Positions 34,947-45,072 are shown, counted from the stretch's first letter. The stretch: DNA of 64,000 nt from an uncultured Chloroflexia bacterium (GCA_963748625.1 CAVVJT010000007.1:896001-960000), one strand, 5' to 3'. Numbers and translations: made by a program. The notes: generated by a model from the sequence alone, not told the origin.

Positions 34947-36116
34947 TCAGGCCCCGGCGCCGGGCGTGTCGTCCGCCCTGTCGATCGCGGTGACCGCGGT
35001 GACCGCCTGCCCGCGGGCGAGCCGGTCCGCGTACTGCCGTGCGTAGTAGCTGTCCCAGTCGCCCCGCTTGGCGCCCTCGACCCAGTCCGCGTGTGCCCGG
35101 TACCACGCGACCGTCGCGGGCAGGCCCTCCTCGAAGTCCACCTGCGGGGTCCAGCCCAGCGCCGCAAGCTTCGCGCCGTCCATCGCATAACGGCGATCGT
35201 GGCCAGGCCGGTCCGGCACGGAGCGCACGAGCGACCAGTCGCGTCCGGTGGCGGCCAGCAGGCGGTCGATCACCTCCCGGTTCGGCAGCAGCCGCGCACC
35301 GGCCACGTTGTACGCCTCACCGGCCTCACCGTGGCGCAGCACGAACTCGATGCCGGCGGCATGGTCGGTCACGTGGAGCCAGTCGCGGACCTGCATGCCG
35401 TCGCCGTACATGGGCAGGTGCTCGCCCGCGAGCGCGTTGGTCGTGAACAGCGGGATGAGCTTCTCGGGATGCTGGTACGGGCCATACGTGTTGGAGCCGC
35501 GCGTGGTGACGACGTCGAGGCCGTAGGTGACGTGGTACGCGCGCACCAGCAGCTCCGAGCTGGCCTTGGCGGCGGCGTACGGGCTGCGCGGTGCGAAGGG
35601 GTCGGTCTCGACGGAGTGCCCGGCGGGGATGTCGCCGTAGACCTCGTCCGTGGAGACCTGCAGGAAGCGAGGGGCGGGCCTTGCCTGGCGCTCGCCGCGA
35701 GCGGCCCGGTCGGCCTCCGCGCGGATGGCCTCGAGCAGCACGTGGACGCCGATGACGCCGGTGCGCAAGAAGGCCTCCGGGTCGAGGATCGAGCGGTCCA
35801 CGTGGGTCTCGGCGGCCACGTTGACGACGGCATCGGCCTCGGCGACCAGCGGCCCCACGATCTCCGGGTCCGCGATGTCGCCGTGCACGAAGGTGAAGCG
35901 GGCGGCCTGTTCCGCGTCCTGCTCGACCTCCGCGAGGTTCGCGCGGTTGCCCGCGTACGTGAGCTTGTCGAGGACCGTGATCCGGGTCCCGTCGCGGCGG
36001 GCCAGGATCCGGCGGACCAGCTCCGAGCCGATGAACCCGGCGCCGCCGGTGACCAGAAGGTTGGCGCCGCCGCCGATGTGGTCGGCCAGGCCCGCGGTGT
36101 GGTCGGCCAGGCTCAC
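34947..36116 (-). CDS. rmlB: dTDP-glucose 4,6-dehydratase
   Basis: TGGAGFIGS, LDKLTYAG, ETHVDRSI, STDEVYG, DRPGHDRRY. Confidence 0.96.
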   Translation of the reverse strand: MSLADHTAGLADHIGGGANLLVTGGAGFIGSELVRRILARRDGTRITVLDKLTYAGNRANLAEVEQDAEQAARFTFVHGDIADPEIVGPLVAEADAVVNVAAETHVDRSILDPEAFLRTGVIGVHVLLEAIRAEADRAARGERQARPAPRFLQVSTDEVYGDIPAGHSVETDPFAPRSPYAAAKASSELLVRAYHVTYGLDVVTTRGSNTYGPYQHPEKLIPLFTTNALAGEHLPMYGDGMQVRDWLHVTDHAAGIEFVLRHGEAGEAYNVAGARLLPNREVIDRLLAATGRDWSLVRSVPDRPGHDRRYAMDGAKLAALGWTPQVDFEEGLPATVAWYRAHADWVEGAKRGDWDSYYARQYADRLARGQAVTAVTAIDRADDTPGAGA

Positions 36117-36880
36117 GCGGGATCCCGCGGGCGCTCGACCGGCCTCGGCAGGCGGCCAGCCGCGTCGTCGATCTCGGCCATCTCTGCGGCGCGCAGGAGG
36201 CTGGGGACAGTGCCGGCGTCGGCCCAGTGCCCTTCGTAGACGGGCGCGAACAGGCGGCCGCCGGGGATGTAGTGGTTGAGGACGTCCGTGATCTCGAACT
36301 CCCCACGTCCCGACGGCGCCAGGCCCTCGATCACGTCGAATGCGTCCGGGCGGAGGAAGTAGACACCGATGGGGATCAGGTCGCTCTTGGGCACCTTGGG
36401 CTTCTCCTCGAAGCCGGCCACACGACCTGCCGCATCGAACTCCGCGACCCCGAAGCGTTCCGGATCGGGAACGCGGTAGAGCAGGGTGCCGGCACCGTGC
36501 TGGCCGTCCTCGAACTGGCGCGCGAGTGAGGCGAGCGGATCGCCGCGGAGGATGTTGTCGCCCAGGACCACGCAGAAGCTGTCGTCGCCGATGAAGTCCC
36601 GCGCGAGACCGATCGCGTGCGCGATGCCCAGCGCGCCACGCTGGTACCGGTAGGTGAGATCGAGACCGAAGTGCCGTCCGTCGCCGAGCAGCTCGACGAT
36701 GTCGCCGACGCTCTTGCCGCCGACGATGACCATGACCTCGCGGATCCCCATGCCCGCCAGGGTGTCCAGCGGGTAGTAGATCATCGGCCGGTCGTAGATC
36801 GGCAGGAGGTGCTTGTTGGTGACGATGGTCAGCGGGTAGAGGCGCGTTGCCGTACCGCCTGCCAGCACGAGGCCCTTCAT
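36113..36880 (-). CDS. rmlA: Glucose-1-phosphate thymidylyltransferase (short form)
   Basis: LAGGTATRLYPLT, NKHLLPIYDRPM, EEKP, GEFEITD. Confidence 0.92.
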   Translation of the reverse strand: MKGLVLAGGTATRLYPLTIVTNKHLLPIYDRPMIYYPLDTLAGMGIREVMVIVGGKSVGDIVELLGDGRHFGLDLTYRYQRGALGIAHAIGLARDFIGDDSFCVVLGDNILRGDPLASLARQFEDGQHGAGTLLYRVPDPERFGVAEFDAAGRVAGFEEKPKVPKSDLIPIGVYFLRPDAFDVIEGLAPSGRGEFEITDVLNHYIPGGRLFAPVYEGHWADAGTVPSLLRAAEMAEIDDAAGRLPRPVERPRDPA

Positions 36881-36888
36881 GGCGCGGA

Positions 36889-36897
36889 AGGGTAGCA
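36889..36897 (-). promoter_or_regulatory. Extended -10 (TGcTACCCT) for a probably leaderless rmlA transcript
   Basis: 8 nt upstream of the ATG with no SD; the identical motif precedes the wzm-like gene (22355-22363). Confidence 0.55.
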
Positions 36898-36907
36898 GGG
36901 GTGCGGA

Positions 36908-37069
36908 GCCACGGATGCGGCGTCGGCCACGGATGCGGCGTCGGCCACGGATGCGGCGTCGGCCACGGATGCGGCGTCGGCCACGGATGCGGCGTCGGCC
37001 ACGGATGCGGCGTCGGCCACGGATGCGGCGTCGGCCACGGATGCGGCGTCGGCCACGGATGCGGCGTCG
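36908..37069. repeat. Perfect 18-bp tandem array, 9 copies (GCCACGGATGCGGCGTCG)
   Basis: Read directly; no spacers. Confidence 0.97.
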
Positions 37070-37088
37070 GCTGCTGGCACCCAGGCGC

Positions 37089-37240
37089 CCTCCCGCTCGG
37101 CGGGCCTTGCGTGCAGGATCCCGCTCAACCCGCCCGCTGGCAGGCACGGACGACCGTTCCGCGCCGAAATTCGAGGGATTTGTGCCGCTGGGCGGGCCAG
37201 GCGTGCAGCATCCTGCGCACAGTGCCCGGCCGGCGGCAGG
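37089..37240. repeat. 152-bp palindromic REP/MITE-like element, copy A
   Basis: Aligns without gaps to 38869-39020 (107/152 identical by hand count) and to 44855-45006; four CCCGC-N3-GCGGG-like cores. Confidence 0.85.
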
Positions 37241-37482
37241 CGGGCTGCCGGGCGGCGGGGTCCTCGGGCGGACCACAGGCCACAGGGCGGCGGCTCATGG
37301 CCTGGCTCCGCGCCGCCACACCATCGCTACCGCCGTCCCAGCGTCCCTATCACGAATGCGCGGGATACAAGGGCGGGCACTCGGCGACGTCCTTGCCGAG
37401 GCCCTGCCGCCCTTGAACCCGAGGAGATCATCCCGCTCGCGCCACTGCGACCCCGAGATCTCTTCTGATCCTCACAACGCGC

Positions 37483-38085
37483 TCAGCCGGCGAGATAGGA
37501 CTCGCACTCCGGCACGACCTTCGCGGCCGGACCGCACAGGACCCACGTGTCATGGACCACCAGCGTGTAGTGCCGGTCCTCCTGCGAATACGACACGGCG
37601 ACGGAGTCCCAACCCCCACCCTGGCTCGACGGCGAGGTACGGAAGCCGAGGAGAACCTCCGCACGGTCCGCGTACTCAGGGAAATCGCACCGCGTCGTCA
37701 TCCTCGCTCCGGTGACCGGAACGATGTCGCCGGCGATGCCGACAGGAGGGAAGCCCTCCCTCCCGAGGAATGCCTGGTCGTCGCCCTCCGGGACATACCG
37801 GACGCTCGCGCCGAGGAACTCCCAGTCGTCGTGCGTCCCGATCGTGTGATCGGGCCGCACGTCATCGATGACCACCTCGTCGCCCGCGGCAAGGCACAGG
37901 CGGACCGCCACCGTGTAGGTCTTGCCGGCGTTGACGGGATCGAGCGCGAGCGTCTGGTCGCCCCGCCCCTGTGCATTCGTGGAGAGCGGGCCCCCGCCGG
38001 CATCGTGTCGCGTGGGGCCATTCGCACAGGCCGCGAGCCCCGCTGCAATGACTACTGCCAGCGCAATACGAGTGAGCCGGGACAC
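37483..38085 (-). CDS. Hypothetical lipoprotein (cargo between elements A and B)
   Basis: Lipobox LAAC; GGGAG RBS. Confidence 0.7.
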   Translation of the reverse strand: MSRLTRIALAVVIAAGLAACANGPTRHDAGGGPLSTNAQGRGDQTLALDPVNAGKTYTVAVRLCLAAGDEVVIDDVRPDHTIGTHDDWEFLGASVRYVPEGDDQAFLGREGFPPVGIAGDIVPVTGARMTTRCDFPEYADRAEVLLGFRTSPSSQGGGWDSVAVSYSQEDRHYTLVVHDTWVLCGPAAKVVPECESYLAG

Positions 38086-38163
38086 AGACGCGCTCCCCCT
38101 TCGTGATGACGACCAATCCTATGCCGTCCTGAACGTATCCCGCACATTCGTGACGGGCCAGCG

Positions 38164-38847
38164 TCAGAGCACGATCAGGCCGCTCACCGGTGGCAACCTT
38201 CCGGATCGCAGCGCCTTCGCAATTGCCGGACCGTCCAGCGGCAGGAGCAGGCGCAGGGCCTCGCGCTCGTGACTGAGCACCTCCTCGTTGTGGCGGGAGC
38301 GGGCTACGGCAAGGATGACGATCTTCCCGCGGCGGTCGTCCCGCAGCTTGAGCTGCAACCGGCGCTCGAGGGCCTGGACGTCGCCGAGGCGACTCTCTGC
38401 GTCAACGAACGCCAGCTCTGCGAGGTCGGAGATGGTGGCATCCCACGCTCGAAGGTCACCGGGCATGGGCAGCCCGACCTCGCGTGCCACCTGCAGCGGC
38501 GCGGCGGGAAGGATCCCGAGCCGCTCGATGAGCCGCTGCTGGCCGGCGTCGCGAATGGGACTCCCCTCCGGGAACAGCCGCACGGACAGTGACAGCCCGA
38601 GCGCCCGAGCAGATCTGGCCACCGCGCACAACGAGGGGTCAGCGTTCTCCCCGCGTTCGAGGCGACTCAGCTGCGACGACGAAATCCCAGCGGCACGAGC
38701 GACAGCCGGCTGACTGATGCCAAGCGCGATCCGGGTGTTGTGCAGCTCGTCGGCCATGCCCGATATGACGCGACGAGCGTCCTCGTCACCGAGCTCGACC
38801 GGACCTCTGCGCACAGACACGACACGATGATGGCCGCCGTCGCTCAC
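38164..38847 (-). CDS. XRE-family HTH fused to a PD-(D/E)xK-like nuclease domain
   Basis: HTH SQPAVARAAGISSSQLSRLERG; C-terminal REV...RAWD...VDAESRLGDVQALERR...KLRD; GTG 38820 is an alternative start. Confidence 0.75.
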   Translation of the reverse strand: MSDGGHHRVVSVRRGPVELGDEDARRVISGMADELHNTRIALGISQPAVARAAGISSSQLSRLERGENADPSLCAVARSARALGLSLSVRLFPEGSPIRDAGQQRLIERLGILPAAPLQVAREVGLPMPGDLRAWDATISDLAELAFVDAESRLGDVQALERRLQLKLRDDRRGKIVILAVARSRHNEEVLSHEREALRLLLPLDGPAIAKALRSGRLPPVSGLIVL

Positions 38848-38868
38848 CGCCCGCTTACACGCCTGTCG

Positions 38869-39020
38869 ACAACCGCTGGGCGGGCGTTGTGGGCAGGATT
38901 GCGCGCAGGCTGCCCGCTGGCAGGCACGAACGACCCTGCGGCCACTGGATCCGAGGGGTTTGTGCCGCTGTGCGGGCAGATTGCGCAGGATCCCTCACGT
39001 GAGGCCCGCCGGGCGGGCCG
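38869..39020. repeat. 152-bp palindromic REP/MITE-like element, copy B
   Basis: Direct, ungapped homolog of copy A; lies about 20 bp upstream of the HTH-nuclease ORF. Confidence 0.85.
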
Positions 39021-39049
39021 CCGCAGGAGCCACGGGCCACCGACAGGGC

Positions 39050-39293
39050 CCGCGGGCGCGAGGTGGGCCGCGGGCGCGAGGTGGGCCGCGGGCGCGAGGT
39101 GGGCCGCGGGCGCGAGGCGCGGGCGCGAGGTGGGCCGCGGGCGCGAGGTGGGCCGCGGGCGCGAGGTGGGCCGCGGGCGCGAGGTGGGGCCGCGGGCGCG
39201 AGGGGGCCGCGGGCGCGAGGTGGGCCGCGGGCGCGAGGTGGGCCGCGGGCGCGAGGTGGGCCGCGGGCGCGAGGGGGCCGCGGGCGCGGGGGG
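39050..39293. repeat. 18-bp tandem array, about 14 copies (CCGCGGGCGCGAGGTGGG), G-rich on the plus strand
   Basis: Read directly; a few copies carry small indels. Confidence 0.95.
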
Positions 39294-39308
39294 CCGGGCG
39301 CGGGCCCC

Positions 39309-40274
39309 TTACGGCTTCGCGGTCGGCTTCACCTTGGGCGTGGGCTCGGGCGTGTAGCAGGGCACCTCGCCCTCGGGCACTGTTCCCTCCGTGCCGCACG
39401 GGACGGCCTGTTCCTCGATGGGCGGCAGCCCGCCCACGTAGTCGGTGATCACCAGCGCAAGCTCGAACGAGTCGAGGTTCGCGGCCGGTGCGAGGAATGC
39501 TGTCTGGACAACAGCGTTCGCATCCCGCTCGACGTCCACCACGGAGCCCACGATGAGCCCCTTCGGGTACGGCGAACGGATGCCGCCATCGACCGAGATG
39601 CCCGCGGTGAACACCTCCTCGTCGATCGCGATCTCCACGGCCGAGTCGATGTTGCGCATCACGAGCACGCCGCCCGCCTGGCCCACGATCTCGCCCTGGG
39701 CCCGGGAGTCCACGAGCTGCCCCACGACGGTGGAGGAGGCATCGCTGACCAGCGTCACCTTGGCGAACGTGGGACCGACGTCGGTGACCCGGCCGGCCAG
39801 CGCGCCGCCCTTGACCACCACGGTGTCGTTGAGCTCGATACCGTCCTCGGTGCCCTTGTCCACGGTCACGATCCGCCGGTTCTCCAGCAGCTCGCGACCG
39901 ATGACGCGGACCGCCACCGTCTCGTGGTCGAAGCCGGACTGGAGCTGGAGGAGCGCCGACATCTCGTCGTTCTCCGACCGCAGCCCCTCCAGCCGGGCGT
40001 TCTCGTTCCCGAGGCGCTCGTTCTCATCCCGCAGGGCGGCGTTCTCCGAGCGCAGCTGGTCGATCTCGCCGATGGCGGCGAAGACGCCGTCCACCCCGTA
40101 GGCCACCGACGCCAGCGCACCCTGGAACGGACGCAGCGCATACGACAGGCCCCGCTGCAGGTCCTGGACGTAGGGGTTGGCGGAGAACGCCATGAGCAGC
40201 AGCGTGATCGCGATGAGGATCGCGAACGTGATTCCCCGCCGACGGCCCTGCTTGCTGCTGACGATCGCGTTCAC
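39309..40274 (-). CDS. mreC: Rod shape-determining protein MreC
   Basis: TM, coiled coil, VDKGTEDGI, YPKGLIVGSV; follows mreB. Confidence 0.93.
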   Translation of the reverse strand: MNAIVSSKQGRRRGITFAILIAITLLLMAFSANPYVQDLQRGLSYALRPFQGALASVAYGVDGVFAAIGEIDQLRSENAALRDENERLGNENARLEGLRSENDEMSALLQLQSGFDHETVAVRVIGRELLENRRIVTVDKGTEDGIELNDTVVVKGGALAGRVTDVGPTFAKVTLVSDASSTVVGQLVDSRAQGEIVGQAGGVLVMRNIDSAVEIAIDEEVFTAGISVDGGIRSPYPKGLIVGSVVDVERDANAVVQTAFLAPAANLDSFELALVITDYVGGLPPIEEQAVPCGTEGTVPEGEVPCYTPEPTPKVKPTAKP

Positions 40275-40328: not shown

Positions 40329-41387
40329 CTAGCGGAGGGGACGGCTGTAGGTGTCGGTCACGAGGACGCGCTCCATCGACGGGTTCGTCAACTGCTGGAG
40401 CACGACGCCCGTCCCGCGCGCCACGCAGGTCAGCGGGTCGTCGGCGACGTGGACTGGCATCTGGGTCGCCTCGGCAACGCGGCGGTCGAGGCCTGCGAGC
40501 AGGGCGCCGCCACCGGCGATGACGATGCCCTGGTCCATGATGTCCGCCACCAGCTCCGGGGGCGTCTCCTCGATCGTGTCCTTGATGGTGTCCACGATCA
40601 TGGCCACCGAGACCTCGATCGCCTCGCGGATCTGGTCGGCACCGACCTCGACAGAGCGGGGCAGGCCGGTGAGCAGATCCCGTCCGCGGAGGGTGACCCG
40701 CTGGGCGTCCCATTCGCCGGGGTACGCGGACCCGATGGCGATCTTGATGTCCTCGGCCGTGCGCTCGCCGAGGAACAGGTTGTACTCGCGGCGGGCGTAG
40801 TTGACGATGTCCTGGTCCATCTCGTCGCCGCCGATCCGGATGGACCGGGACACGACGATGCCGCCCAGCGAGATGACCGCCACCTCGGTGGTGCCGCCGC
40901 CGATGTCCACGATCAGCGAGCCGGAAGGCTCCGACACGGGCAGCCCGGCGCCGATCGCTGCGGCCATCGGTTCCTCGATGAGGCGGGCCCAGCGGGCGCC
41001 CGCGTTGAGGGCGGCGTCACGGACTGCGCGCTTCTCGACCTCGGTGACGCCCGACGGGATGCCCAGCAGCATCCGGGGCCGCGGGATCAGGCCCACCCGG
41101 TCGTGCACCTTGTTCACGAAGTACTTGATCATCTGTTCCGTGACGTCGAAGTCGCTGATGACGCCGTCGCGGAGCGGACGGACCGCGATGATCGATGCGG
41201 GCGTGCGGCCGACCATGCGCTTCGCTTCGGCCCCGATGGCGAGGACGCGCTTGGTCTTTGCGTCGATCGCGACCACCGACGGCTCGCTGATCACGATGCC
41301 GCGATCGCGCACGTGCACGAGCGTGTTCGCGGTGCCGAGATCGATCCCGATGTCGCGGGAGAAGAGGCCGAGGAGTCGGTCGAACAT
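40329..41387 (-). CDS. mreB: Actin-like rod shape-determining protein MreB
   Basis: IDLGTANT, EEPMAAAIGAGL, DIGGGTTEVA. Confidence 0.98.
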   Translation of the reverse strand: MFDRLLGLFSRDIGIDLGTANTLVHVRDRGIVISEPSVVAIDAKTKRVLAIGAEAKRMVGRTPASIIAVRPLRDGVISDFDVTEQMIKYFVNKVHDRVGLIPRPRMLLGIPSGVTEVEKRAVRDAALNAGARWARLIEEPMAAAIGAGLPVSEPSGSLIVDIGGGTTEVAVISLGGIVVSRSIRIGGDEMDQDIVNYARREYNLFLGERTAEDIKIAIGSAYPGEWDAQRVTLRGRDLLTGLPRSVEVGADQIREAIEVSVAMIVDTIKDTIEETPPELVADIMDQGIVIAGGGALLAGLDRRVAEATQMPVHVADDPLTCVARGTGVVLQQLTNPSMERVLVTDTYSRPLR

Positions 41388-44552: not shown

Positions 44553-44648
44553 GGGTTGCCCTCTCGTGTCGATGCCTGGCCGGTGCCTGTCGCGCTCCGT
44601 CGTGGGCCAGTATCCGCCAGTAGCGTCTCCGCGCGCCCGGAGTTGCGC

Positions 44649-44878
44649 CAGCGGCGTTCTCCGCGGCCATCCTCCCGCCAGGCGGGCCCTGCGTCAGCGG
44701 CGTTCTCCGCGGCCATCCTCCCGCCAGGCGGGCCCTGCGTCAGCGGCGTTCTCCGCGGCCATCCTCCCGCCAGGCGGGCCCTGCGTCAGCGGCGTTCTCC
44801 GCGGCCATCCTCCCGCCAGGCGGGCCCTGCGTCAGCGGCGTTCTCCGCGGCCATCCTCCCGCCAGGCGGGCCCTGCGT
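44649..44878. repeat. Perfect 46-bp tandem array, 5 copies
   Basis: Unit cagcggcgttctccgcggccatcctcccgccaggcgggccctgcgt; its last 24 bp are the left end of element C. Confidence 0.97.
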
Positions 44879-45006
44879 GCACAACTTCGCGCAGTCCTCC
44901 CGCCCAGCGGGCAGCCAAGGCCGGATTCGGCGCAATCCGGGTGCCTCCGCCCGCGTGGCGGCAGATCTGCACAGGATTCTGCAGACAGCGCCCGCTGGGC
45001 GGGAGG
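44855..45006. repeat. 152-bp palindromic REP/MITE-like element, copy C
   Basis: Terminal inverted repeats cctcccgccaggcgggc / gcccgctgggcgggagg; same length as A and B, ends conserved, centre diverged. Confidence 0.8.
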
Positions 45007-45072
45007 CCGAGCGCCACACCAGTCGAAGCGAGCGCCAGGCCAGACGATTGGAGCGCCGCGTACCCTTCACCC

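Follow-up and report, generated by a model that had tools for sequence, protein, structure and literature searches.

The 64,000-nt window analyzed here, taken from an uncultured Chloroflexia bacterium (GCA_963748625.1 CAVVJT010000007.1:896001-960000), carries an inserted block of 2.4 kb between mreC and a gene for an RmlA-like nucleotidyl transferase (rmlA). The block is built around a small gene whose product is predicted to join an XRE-type helix-turn-helix (HTH) domain to a domain with a restriction-endonuclease-like, PD-(D/E)xK fold. Two copies of a long palindrome (elements A and B, belonging to a repeat family designated F1) lie on either side of this gene, and a tandem array stands just outside each of them. 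Read from mreC to the RmlA-like gene, the order is array R, element B, the HTH/nuclease-fold gene, a lipoprotein-like gene, element A and array L, and all genes at this locus lie on the minus strand. A symmetrical layout of this kind between rmlA and mreC had been described in the original prediction, which was made from the sequence alone, and every feature was found at the place given for it. In window coordinates, the features are as follows.

34947-36116, minus strand: RmlB-like dehydratase
36113-36880, minus strand: RmlA-like nucleotidyl transferase (NTP_transferase, PF00483, 180 bits), the backbone gene on one side of the block
36908-37071: tandem array L, 18-bp unit x 9.1, 100% matches (Tandem Repeats Finder, TRF)
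37084-37246, plus strand: element A, full-length F1 copy (nhmmer 119 bits on the plus strand, 68 bits on the minus strand)
37483-38085, minus strand: lipoprotein-like gene, 200 aa (open reading frame, ORF)
38164-38847, minus strand: XRE-HTH/PD-(D/E)xK-fold gene, 227 aa (HTH_31, 43.1 bits, cut-off 27)
38863-39025, plus strand: element B, full-length F1 copy (nhmmer 102 bits on the plus strand, 57 bits on the minus strand)
39050-39296: tandem array R, 18-bp unit x 14.2, 93% matches (TRF)
39309-40274, minus strand: mreC (PF04085, 96.8 bits), the second of the two backbone genes that enclose the block
40329-41387, minus strand: mreB (PF06723, 475 bits)

Array L is separated from the outer end of element A by a gap of 12 nt and lies 28 nt upstream of the RmlA-like start codon, while array R begins 13 nt past the mreC stop codon and leaves a gap of 24 nt to the outer end of element B. 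Element B ends 16 nt upstream of the GTG that opens the longest ORF and 43 nt from the probable true start at 38820, a GTG at the codon of residue 10, which is where most homologues (218 aa) begin to align and which would give a protein of 218 aa.

Palindrome family F1

Elements A and B stand in direct orientation and align without gaps over 144 nt (37093-37236 vs 38873-39016) at 73% identity, in agreement with their original description as ungapped direct copies; BLAST against the whole genome gave 79% identity over 105 nt (E 2e-19). Each of the two is also palindromic, its arms pairing with the opposite arms of the other copy over 53-54 nt (74-77% complementary), and each matches the F1 profile on both strands. 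An iterated nhmmer profile search of the 4.63-Mb genome (71% GC) recovered 49 F1 loci, 43 of them full length (at least 140 nt), among which a third copy falls within the window (44849-45012, plus strand, equal to C7:940849-941012, 91.7 bits). The earlier claim that the two elements bracket the gene therefore stands as far as their position is concerned, but they are not private to this locus, being 2 of 43 full-length copies dispersed through the genome.

The F1 consensus is a near-perfect palindrome of ~155 nt with a variable centre (elements measure ~160 nt), and each arm contains a terminal CCCGC-N4-GCGGG hairpin, an inverted repeat of the TGCGYGCAGGA type and a second hairpin, CCGC-N-GCGG. 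The hairpin stems are invariant while the copies are ~57-70% alike. Overall, the compound palindromes considered in this study span 150-165 nt and comprise about six hairpin modules. A covariance model of the family, R1, recovered element A with an E value of 1.4e-19 and element B with 5.5e-18; applied to the 40 other genomes of the genus, with 71 candidates scored per genome, it produced weak matches in three, F1 being strong in this genome only.

A reading of F1 as a structured RNA was considered and rejected. The search of 36500-39700 against Rfam returned a single sub-threshold match (sR45, E 0.87), RNAalifold on 25 F1 copies found almost no covariation (compensatory change in 2 of 25 pairs, covariation term -0.47), and the fold energy of element A is unremarkable (z-score -0.77, not significant; element B, -3.8).

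Pairing of gene lineages with their own palindromes

Three other paralogs of the HTH/nuclease-fold gene are encoded in this genome, with 47-52% identity, each more than 30 kb from any F1 copy. The window gene lies between two F1 copies. Two members of a different family, F2, sharing 80% identity over 143 nt, enclose paralog p2 (C7:665397-666029). Downstream of paralog p4 (C10:414609-415262) stands a 160-nt palindrome belonging to a third family, F3, and upstream of the same gene a 65-nt partial copy with 97% identity. The families F1, F2 and F3 comprise 43, 30 and 23 loci, respectively, without overlap. Among F2 pairs, 18% are at least 95% identical, and the sequences suggest a recent multiplication of F2.

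The arrangement recurs in three further genomes of the genus, where the flanking palindromes measure ~150-173 nt. In G001, the gene lies between two 173-nt copies that are 100% identical, with ~8 other matches in the genome; the flanking copies are 85% identical in G006 (~20 other matches) and 73% identical in G030 (~15 other matches). Altogether, six gene-repeat pairs were found across four genomes, and each of the five full pairs has its two flanking copies in direct orientation. The link between protein family and palindromes that had been proposed at the outset is therefore borne out as a cognate and recurrent one, with paralogs and relatives keeping families of their own.

The same question was addressed across 44 genus loci of ~10.6 kb each (40 with 5 kb on each side of the gene, plus the 4 of this genome). 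Flanking repeats of at least 60 nt accompany 9 of 43 family genes vs 0 of 60 other genes at the same loci (Fisher p 2e-4), and 14 of the 18 long palindromes detected lie within 800 bp of the gene. When A and B are added, a flanking repeat or a nearby long palindrome is present at 18 of the 44 loci; palindromic flanks of homologues, as the original prediction had supposed, were thus found with insensitive detection, for the ungapped palindrome finder and the gapped self-alignment both miss A and B and palindrome counts are lower bounds. At 21 metagenome loci, whose homologues are 34-48% identical, all five long palindromes detected are on the upstream side, 177-317 nt from the gene, and one locus has a 143-nt flanking pair with 84% identity. 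The metagenome scan yielded no close relative of the window protein, the best match having 48% identity.

Besides this family, the only ones that recur among the 248 genes lying no more than 1.2 kb from the 94 element copies considered are large generic families, namely histidine kinases, NuoF-like proteins and ABC ATPases. No match to PF01797, the Y1/HUH domain of RAYT transposases, was obtained in the genome (98.3% complete) by a search that was positive in 6 of 14 known genomes used as a control, in line with the proposed independence from RAYT. A repeat family is called genome-specific here when a DNA search of the other genomes did not find it; that search missed a match of 79% over 85 nt that BLAST found.

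As a separate observation, F2 forms a portion of a longer repeat, which measures ~300 nt or more and of which there are ~20 near-identical copies (e.g. C10:1092506-1092746, C2:26507-26730 and C2:40437-40660). The parts of this longer repeat are a left arm, a 17-nt unit in 2-5 repeats depending on the copy, the 150-nt palindrome and a conserved right part of ~90 nt. The long repeat resembles a non-coding element that has multiplied recently and carries a variable-number repeat within it.

The protein and its predicted fold

The HTH domain occupies residues ~32-88 and the nuclease-like domain residues ~95-227. Membership of the former in the XRE group is indicated by HTH_31 and by HTH_3 (31.6 bits, cut-off 23), both covering residues 32-88, and its structural matches are HipB, C.AhdI and ClgR (Z 9.5-10.5). 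A word-indexed search returned at least 401 family members, mostly of 218 aa and some of them labelled Candidatus Limnocylindrales. With a profile of the C-terminal 133 residues, 1,179 representatives were collected at 50% clustering (822 at E <=1e-10), in which the domain nearly always occupies residues ~86-218 of proteins of ~217 aa. The databases label these homologues only as 'XRE-family transcriptional regulator'. The C-terminal domain has no match in Pfam, NCBIfam, PADLOC or PHROGs, and the family profile gave 0 matches among PDB sequences.

Structure prediction with AF2/AlphaFold was confident for the whole protein (predicted local distance difference test score, pLDDT, 88.9) and for the domain alone (pLDDT 88.0; predicted template modelling score, pTM, 0.84). 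The domain is modelled as a helix, three strands, a helix and a strand, i.e. the alpha-beta-beta-beta-alpha-beta core of PD-(D/E)xK enzymes. In VIA comparisons with the full model, the best match of the C-terminal part was 1y88_A (AF1548; Z 9.4, root-mean-square deviation 2.9, 101 residues aligned), followed by XisH (2okf_B, 9.2), NucS (2vld_B, 8.0), Card1 (7.8), 3dnx (7.7) and Can2 (7.4); with the domain alone, 1y88_A (Z 8.4) and 2okf_B (8.0) were found again, and at least 26 of the 50 listed rows are titled nuclease, restriction enzyme or junction resolvase. Lower structural matches include restriction enzymes, Bax1, VRR-NUC, Vsr and Hjc. Foldseek with the domain alone placed McrC, YaeQ, Hjc and Bax1 in its weak top rows, with the full model it returned HTH proteins alone, and an Atlas structure of a homologue matched Chloroflexota HTH clusters only. 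The model indicates that the C-terminal domain is of the restriction-endonuclease-like (PD-(D/E)xK) fold, as had been predicted; the structure searches agree on this, with middling scores. In the model, the domain shares its core fold and the placement of acidic residues on strands 2 and 3 with AF1548 (1y88), XisH (2okf), NucS (2vld), Hjc and BamHI. It differs from known PD-(D/E)xK nucleases in having no sequence similarity to them, and these nucleases are not known to be fused to an XRE HTH or to have the kind of partnership with repeats that is proposed here.

The conserved positions are E123, D131, R133-A-W-D136, (D/E)149-x-E151, D156, Q158, K167 and R169-D170-D171. In an alignment of 57 homologues, 36-57% identical to the window protein, E123, R133, W135, D136, R169 and D170 are invariant and E149, D156, Q158 and K167 are conserved in at least 90% of the sequences; E151 is conserved in at least 90% of a 36-sequence alignment. 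The motif RAWD...DAE, originally singled out as the catalytic signature, is accordingly retained, D136 being invariant and positions 149 and 151 acidic in at least 90% of the sequences in one of the two alignments. In the secondary structure of the model, D136 lies on strand 2, (D/E)149-x-E151 on strand 3 and K167 on the next helix. The acidic motif has the form D...(D/E)xE, with a glutamate at the canonical lysine position of (D/E)xK, and the D...ExE triad is presumably comparable to the lysine-less site of BamHI.

The neighbourhood of mreBC led to RodZ, a protein made up of an HTH, a membrane span and DUF4115, being considered as an identity for this product. It was rejected: HTH_25 scores below threshold (18 bits, cut-off 24.6), DUF4115 gives no match, and the C-terminal part has a predicted nuclease fold. 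That 17 of 30 relatives lack the gene at the mreC|rmlA junction also disfavours this identity.

Tandem arrays at the ends of the elements

Tandem arrays (period >=9, >=3.5 copies) lie within 60 bp of 16 of the 43 F1 copies, vs 0.58 expected by random placement (maximum 4 in 1000 trials), and they are likewise found near 6 of 30 F2 and 6 of 21 F3 copies. Counted by spacers, 8 contain both an element and an array, 28 an element and 70 an array, out of a total of 2368 (odds ratio 12-15); this Fisher comparison is rough, for the GC3-based gene caller (GC3, GC content at third codon positions) crosses repeats and places 28 of the 43 elements in spacers. The arrays directly adjoin the outer ends of the elements, often with shorter arrays on the other side as well, and at paralogs p2 and p4 they likewise lie just outside the flanking elements. 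The array unit differs at every F1 and F3 locus, and in several cases it includes the terminal hairpin. At the third F1 copy of the window, for example, an array of a 46-bp unit x 5.1 (44644-44878, 99% matches) overlaps the left end of the element, and its unit contains the terminal hairpin.

The genome as a whole is unusually rich in perfect minisatellites, with 155 arrays under the same definition, such as a 12-bp unit x 90 at C10:551084-552241 and an 18-bp unit x 28 at C7:1002241-1003180.

History of the mreC|rmlA site and residence of the gene

The gene mreC is present in all 41 genus genomes. In 17 of 30 relatives' loci, rmlA follows mreC directly, at 29-241 bp, so that the empty site raised by the original prediction does exist among relatives. 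A family gene occupies the junction at 5 of the 30 loci and, by coordinates, in 9 of 41 genomes; in this genome and in G015 it runs in the same direction as mreC, elsewhere in convergent orientation. The mreC|rmlA spacer ranges from 29 to >1500 bp in relatives, whether the gene is present or not. In addition, one metagenome contig from a relative (at least 88% likeness) joins 36917 to 39322 and thereby bypasses the 2.4-kb block; it comes from one (X7) of four sequencing runs examined, and the listed runs, which include no RNA run, all have shares of <=0.11. GC3 is 0.80 for the HTH gene and 0.83 for the lipoprotein gene, compared with 0.92-0.95 for mreB, mreC, the RmlB-like gene and other neighbours, and the low values suggest, as a compositional argument, a more recent or foreign origin of the two genes.

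Across species, family members recur at no fewer than eight syntenic sites. In a midpoint-rooted FastTree phylogeny without support values, the proteins of each site from 2 to 8 form a group of their own, and the flanks of one such site, S3, are kept between species at 70-79% over 85-175 nt. These patterns suggest long vertical residence of the gene together with its flanks, as described for RAYTs; being fixed at syntenic sites within clades, the gene itself would move rarely, more in the manner of a resident RAYT than of an insertion sequence. The window protein falls outside the other proteins of the mreC|rmlA site (site 1) in the same tree and groups with its own paralogs p2 and p4 and with L103. 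The window gene is therefore read as a lineage-specific arrival at a site that other family members also used.

Two further observations concern this site. The family gene between mreC and rmlA matches as two overlapping pieces at L080 (G035) and at L101/L138 (G018), with a TGA inside the G035 match, and the gene may be a decaying copy in both genomes. A conserved motif, CCTGCTA(C/G)(C/G)CT (CCTGCTAC-type), precedes the RmlA-like start by ~10-20 nt in each of the 17 relatives with an empty site and also in this window, where it is still present (36881-36907) just below array L; it may be a -10-like promoter element very near the start codon. The inserted block starts immediately upstream of the motif, so whatever preceded the motif has been displaced.

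The lipoprotein-like gene

The lipoprotein-like protein has a signal peptide with a lipobox-like LAAC, the lipobox being read from the translation. Its gene lies inside the bracket at this locus alone and beside none of the other 43 family genes examined, and besides itself it has five homologues, 36-83% identical. The suggestion that the system carries cargo genes is not sustained, since with one instance among the family genes and so few homologues the 'cargo' amounts to a single anecdote.

A 19-nt inverted repeat brackets the lipoprotein gene (37350-37368 and 38135-38153, 18 of 19 positions complementary), with one arm 11 nt below the stop of the HTH gene and the other 115 nt past the lipoprotein stop. 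No further occurrence of the arms was found in the genome at <=2 mismatches. The two arms could delimit a cassette that was inserted separately, serve as paired binding sites for a protein or engage in long-range pairing at the RNA level.

Comparison with known repeat systems

MITEs (miniature inverted-repeat transposable elements), Correia elements and BIMEs (bacterial interspersed mosaic elements) are non-coding structured intergenic repeats of 100-300 nt. The palindromes described here resemble MITEs and mosaic palindromic repeats in being non-coding, structured and intergenic, and F2 also in its many near-identical copies. In contrast to MITEs, no parent insertion sequence with a DDE transposase was seen to recur beside the 94 copies, no target-site duplication was seen at 17 array junctions, and the palindromes are associated with a dedicated nuclease-fold gene that they flank.

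Apart from repeat-enzyme partnerships (REPIN-RAYT, Ssn-NTS), bacterial genomes are not known to contain sequence populations that persist for long and are inherited vertically. Two such partnerships were found in print, one formed by HUH enzymes (REPIN-RAYT) and one by GIY-YIG enzymes (Ssn, PMC11893778).

Among the closest known systems are the REP/REPIN sequences with their RAYT (TnpA-REP) genes, on which the literature includes PMC3116915, PMC3337134, PMC5581495, PMC3479197, PMC8266576 and bioRxiv 10.1101/2021.07.10.451892. In these systems, the enzyme gene is flanked by a palindromic repeat that is also dispersed through the genome, there is one repeat family per enzyme lineage with several systems per genome, and the genes stand at fixed syntenic sites within clades, suggesting long vertical residence. 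All of these features are shared by the present system. However, the protein has an XRE HTH and a predicted PD-(D/E)xK fold instead of HUH/Y1, and neither it nor the genome matches PF01797. The palindromes are compound and 150-165 nt long, while REPs are described as short palindromes of 20-40 bp (PMC3733652), occurring singly or as inverted doublets; the flanking copies are direct rather than inverted, copy numbers are in the tens rather than the hundreds, and tandem arrays stand at the element ends.

Ssn proteins are GIY-YIG site-specific nucleases of single-stranded DNA associated with NTS/SRM hairpin repeats of 20-50 nt, and according to PMC11893778, 42% of SsnA homologues are flanked on both sides by a hairpin motif, Ssn homologues each cut their own motif variant, and the enzyme lowers transformation. 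As in that system, a small nuclease-type gene lies here between cognate hairpin repeats, of which lineage-specific variants are dispersed around genes. The catalytic domain is unrelated, an HTH is added, and the elements are 3-5 times longer than the Ssn motifs. No match to GIY-YIG was obtained for the window protein in Pfam or NCBIfam, and its fold is PD-(D/E)xK-like according to the model. A limited search of the literature turned up no description of an HTH/PD-(D/E)xK enzyme that has palindromic repeats as its partner.

Interpretation and alternative explanations

Taken together with these analogies, the cognate pairing of gene lineages and palindrome families makes it probable that gene and palindromes form a partnership of the REPIN-RAYT or Ssn-NTS type on an unrelated enzyme. 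The protein would represent an undescribed family of DNA enzymes, recognising either sequence or structure, and would act on or bind the flanking and scattered palindromes. That it binds its elements is likely; that it also cuts them is an even proposition, and that it is the agent which spreads them has somewhat less than even chances.

In the mechanism favoured here, each protein lineage would keep copies from a palindrome family of its own next to its gene on either side, and this family would persist, and sometimes multiply, elsewhere in the genome. A dimer of the HTH domain would read the inner inverted repeats of the element, and the nuclease domain would cut at or near the base of an extruded hairpin or cruciform, that is, at the outer ends of the element. 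Repair of the break would then copy or maintain the elements and, as a by-product, stutter the adjoining 15-25 bp into tandem arrays. This mechanism would connect a fold that resembles those of junction resolvases and restriction enzymes with the long palindromes and with the precise place at which the arrays occur. The original proposal that the HTH domain binds the repeated CCCGC-N3-GCGGG cores and that the nuclease domain nicks or cuts them is likewise hypothetical. In its fullest form, it would describe a third independent replicator composed of a repeat and a resident nuclease, namely an HTH-guided PD-(D/E)xK enzyme with a BamHI-like lysine-less site that cuts cruciforms or hairpins and mobilises palindromes of ~150 nt in Chloroflexota (Limnocylindria), co-diversifying with them and generating minisatellites; this complete version is put forward tentatively, as more doubtful than any of its parts named above.

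Several results weigh against the partnership. For the protein, the canonical (D/E)xK lysine is replaced by glutamate, so that nuclease activity is not assured; Foldseek with the domain alone gave no match at E <=0.001, and the best VIA scores (Z 8.4-9.4) are middling, barely above the background of 7-8 stated for the tool. For the elements, the low likeness among F1 copies suggests that this family is old or constrained, with no visible present activity, and the gene-flanking copies of F2 and F3 are divergent within their families (88-98 bits vs 110-128). Just 2 of the 43 F1 copies have a family gene in their vicinity; the other 41 are remote from any, which fits action in trans but equally an unrelated repeat. 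Paralog p3 has no element in its flanks, 26 of the 44 genus loci have neither a flanking repeat nor a nearby long palindrome (by a detection that also misses A and B), and of four relatives examined with the gene at site 1, three (L105, L118 and L123) showed no palindromes and one (L138) showed one. Finally, no target-site duplication was found, the array unit recurring on the other side of the element at 0 of 17 junctions, and the arrays are hence not simple target-site duplications.

The replaced lysine also bears on the strongest alternative, in which the protein is an ordinary autoregulating XRE factor whose nuclease-fold domain is inactive and serves dimerisation or ligand binding, the palindromes carrying its operators and being spread or maintained by other means, with the copies next to the gene doing no more than regulating it. 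Inverted repeats in front of their own genes are typical binding sites of XRE proteins, and the single feature seen most often at these loci is indeed a palindrome upstream of the gene at a rather uniform distance (about -180 to -320). However, elements of 150-160 nt with six hairpin modules far exceed the size of an operator, downstream copies at 9 of 43 genes have no obvious operator role, and the tandem arrays at element ends are left unexplained. The near-invariance of the acidic and polar active-site set across the 57 divergent homologues argues for a conserved catalytic or metal-binding site. An autoregulator is therefore regarded as unlikely.

Less probable still is a gatekeeper comparable to Ssn, which would cut its cognate repeat in incoming or single-stranded DNA and so limit transformation or recombination, the repeats serving as genomic marks. 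Duplex or branched DNA is the usual substrate of PD-(D/E)xK enzymes, the enzyme class is HTH plus PD-(D/E)xK instead of GIY-YIG, and 20-45 copies per genome are few for a self-mark. The layout is as described for SsnA in PMC11893778, with lineage-specific families in both cases, but the elements of 150-160 nt contrast with the 20-50 nt given there for Ssn motifs. A coincidental accumulation of palindromes, minisatellites and accessory genes in dispensable spacers, without functional link, would suit a minisatellite-rich genome with 155 arrays, an mreC|rmlA spacer that varies from 29 to >1500 bp with or without the gene and the GC3 of 0.80-0.83 vs 0.92-0.95 that hints at foreign DNA, but it is already disfavoured and highly improbable, for three paralogs of one genome each have their own family without mixture, the pattern recurs in three further genomes, 0 of 60 control genes at the same loci have flanking repeats, and no other small gene family recurs beside the elements.

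Significance

If the partnership of this HTH/PD-(D/E)xK-fold protein with its palindromes is real, the repeat-enzyme lifestyle would have evolved repeatedly from different nucleases, here in an uncultured soil and freshwater lineage. The protein would be a candidate sequence- or structure-specific nuclease for long palindromes, and a name could be given to a family of ~1,200 sequence clusters that are now listed only as XRE-family transcriptional regulators. The partnership would also offer a cause for the many perfect minisatellites of these genomes, a testable one because the arrays sit exactly at the ends of the elements.

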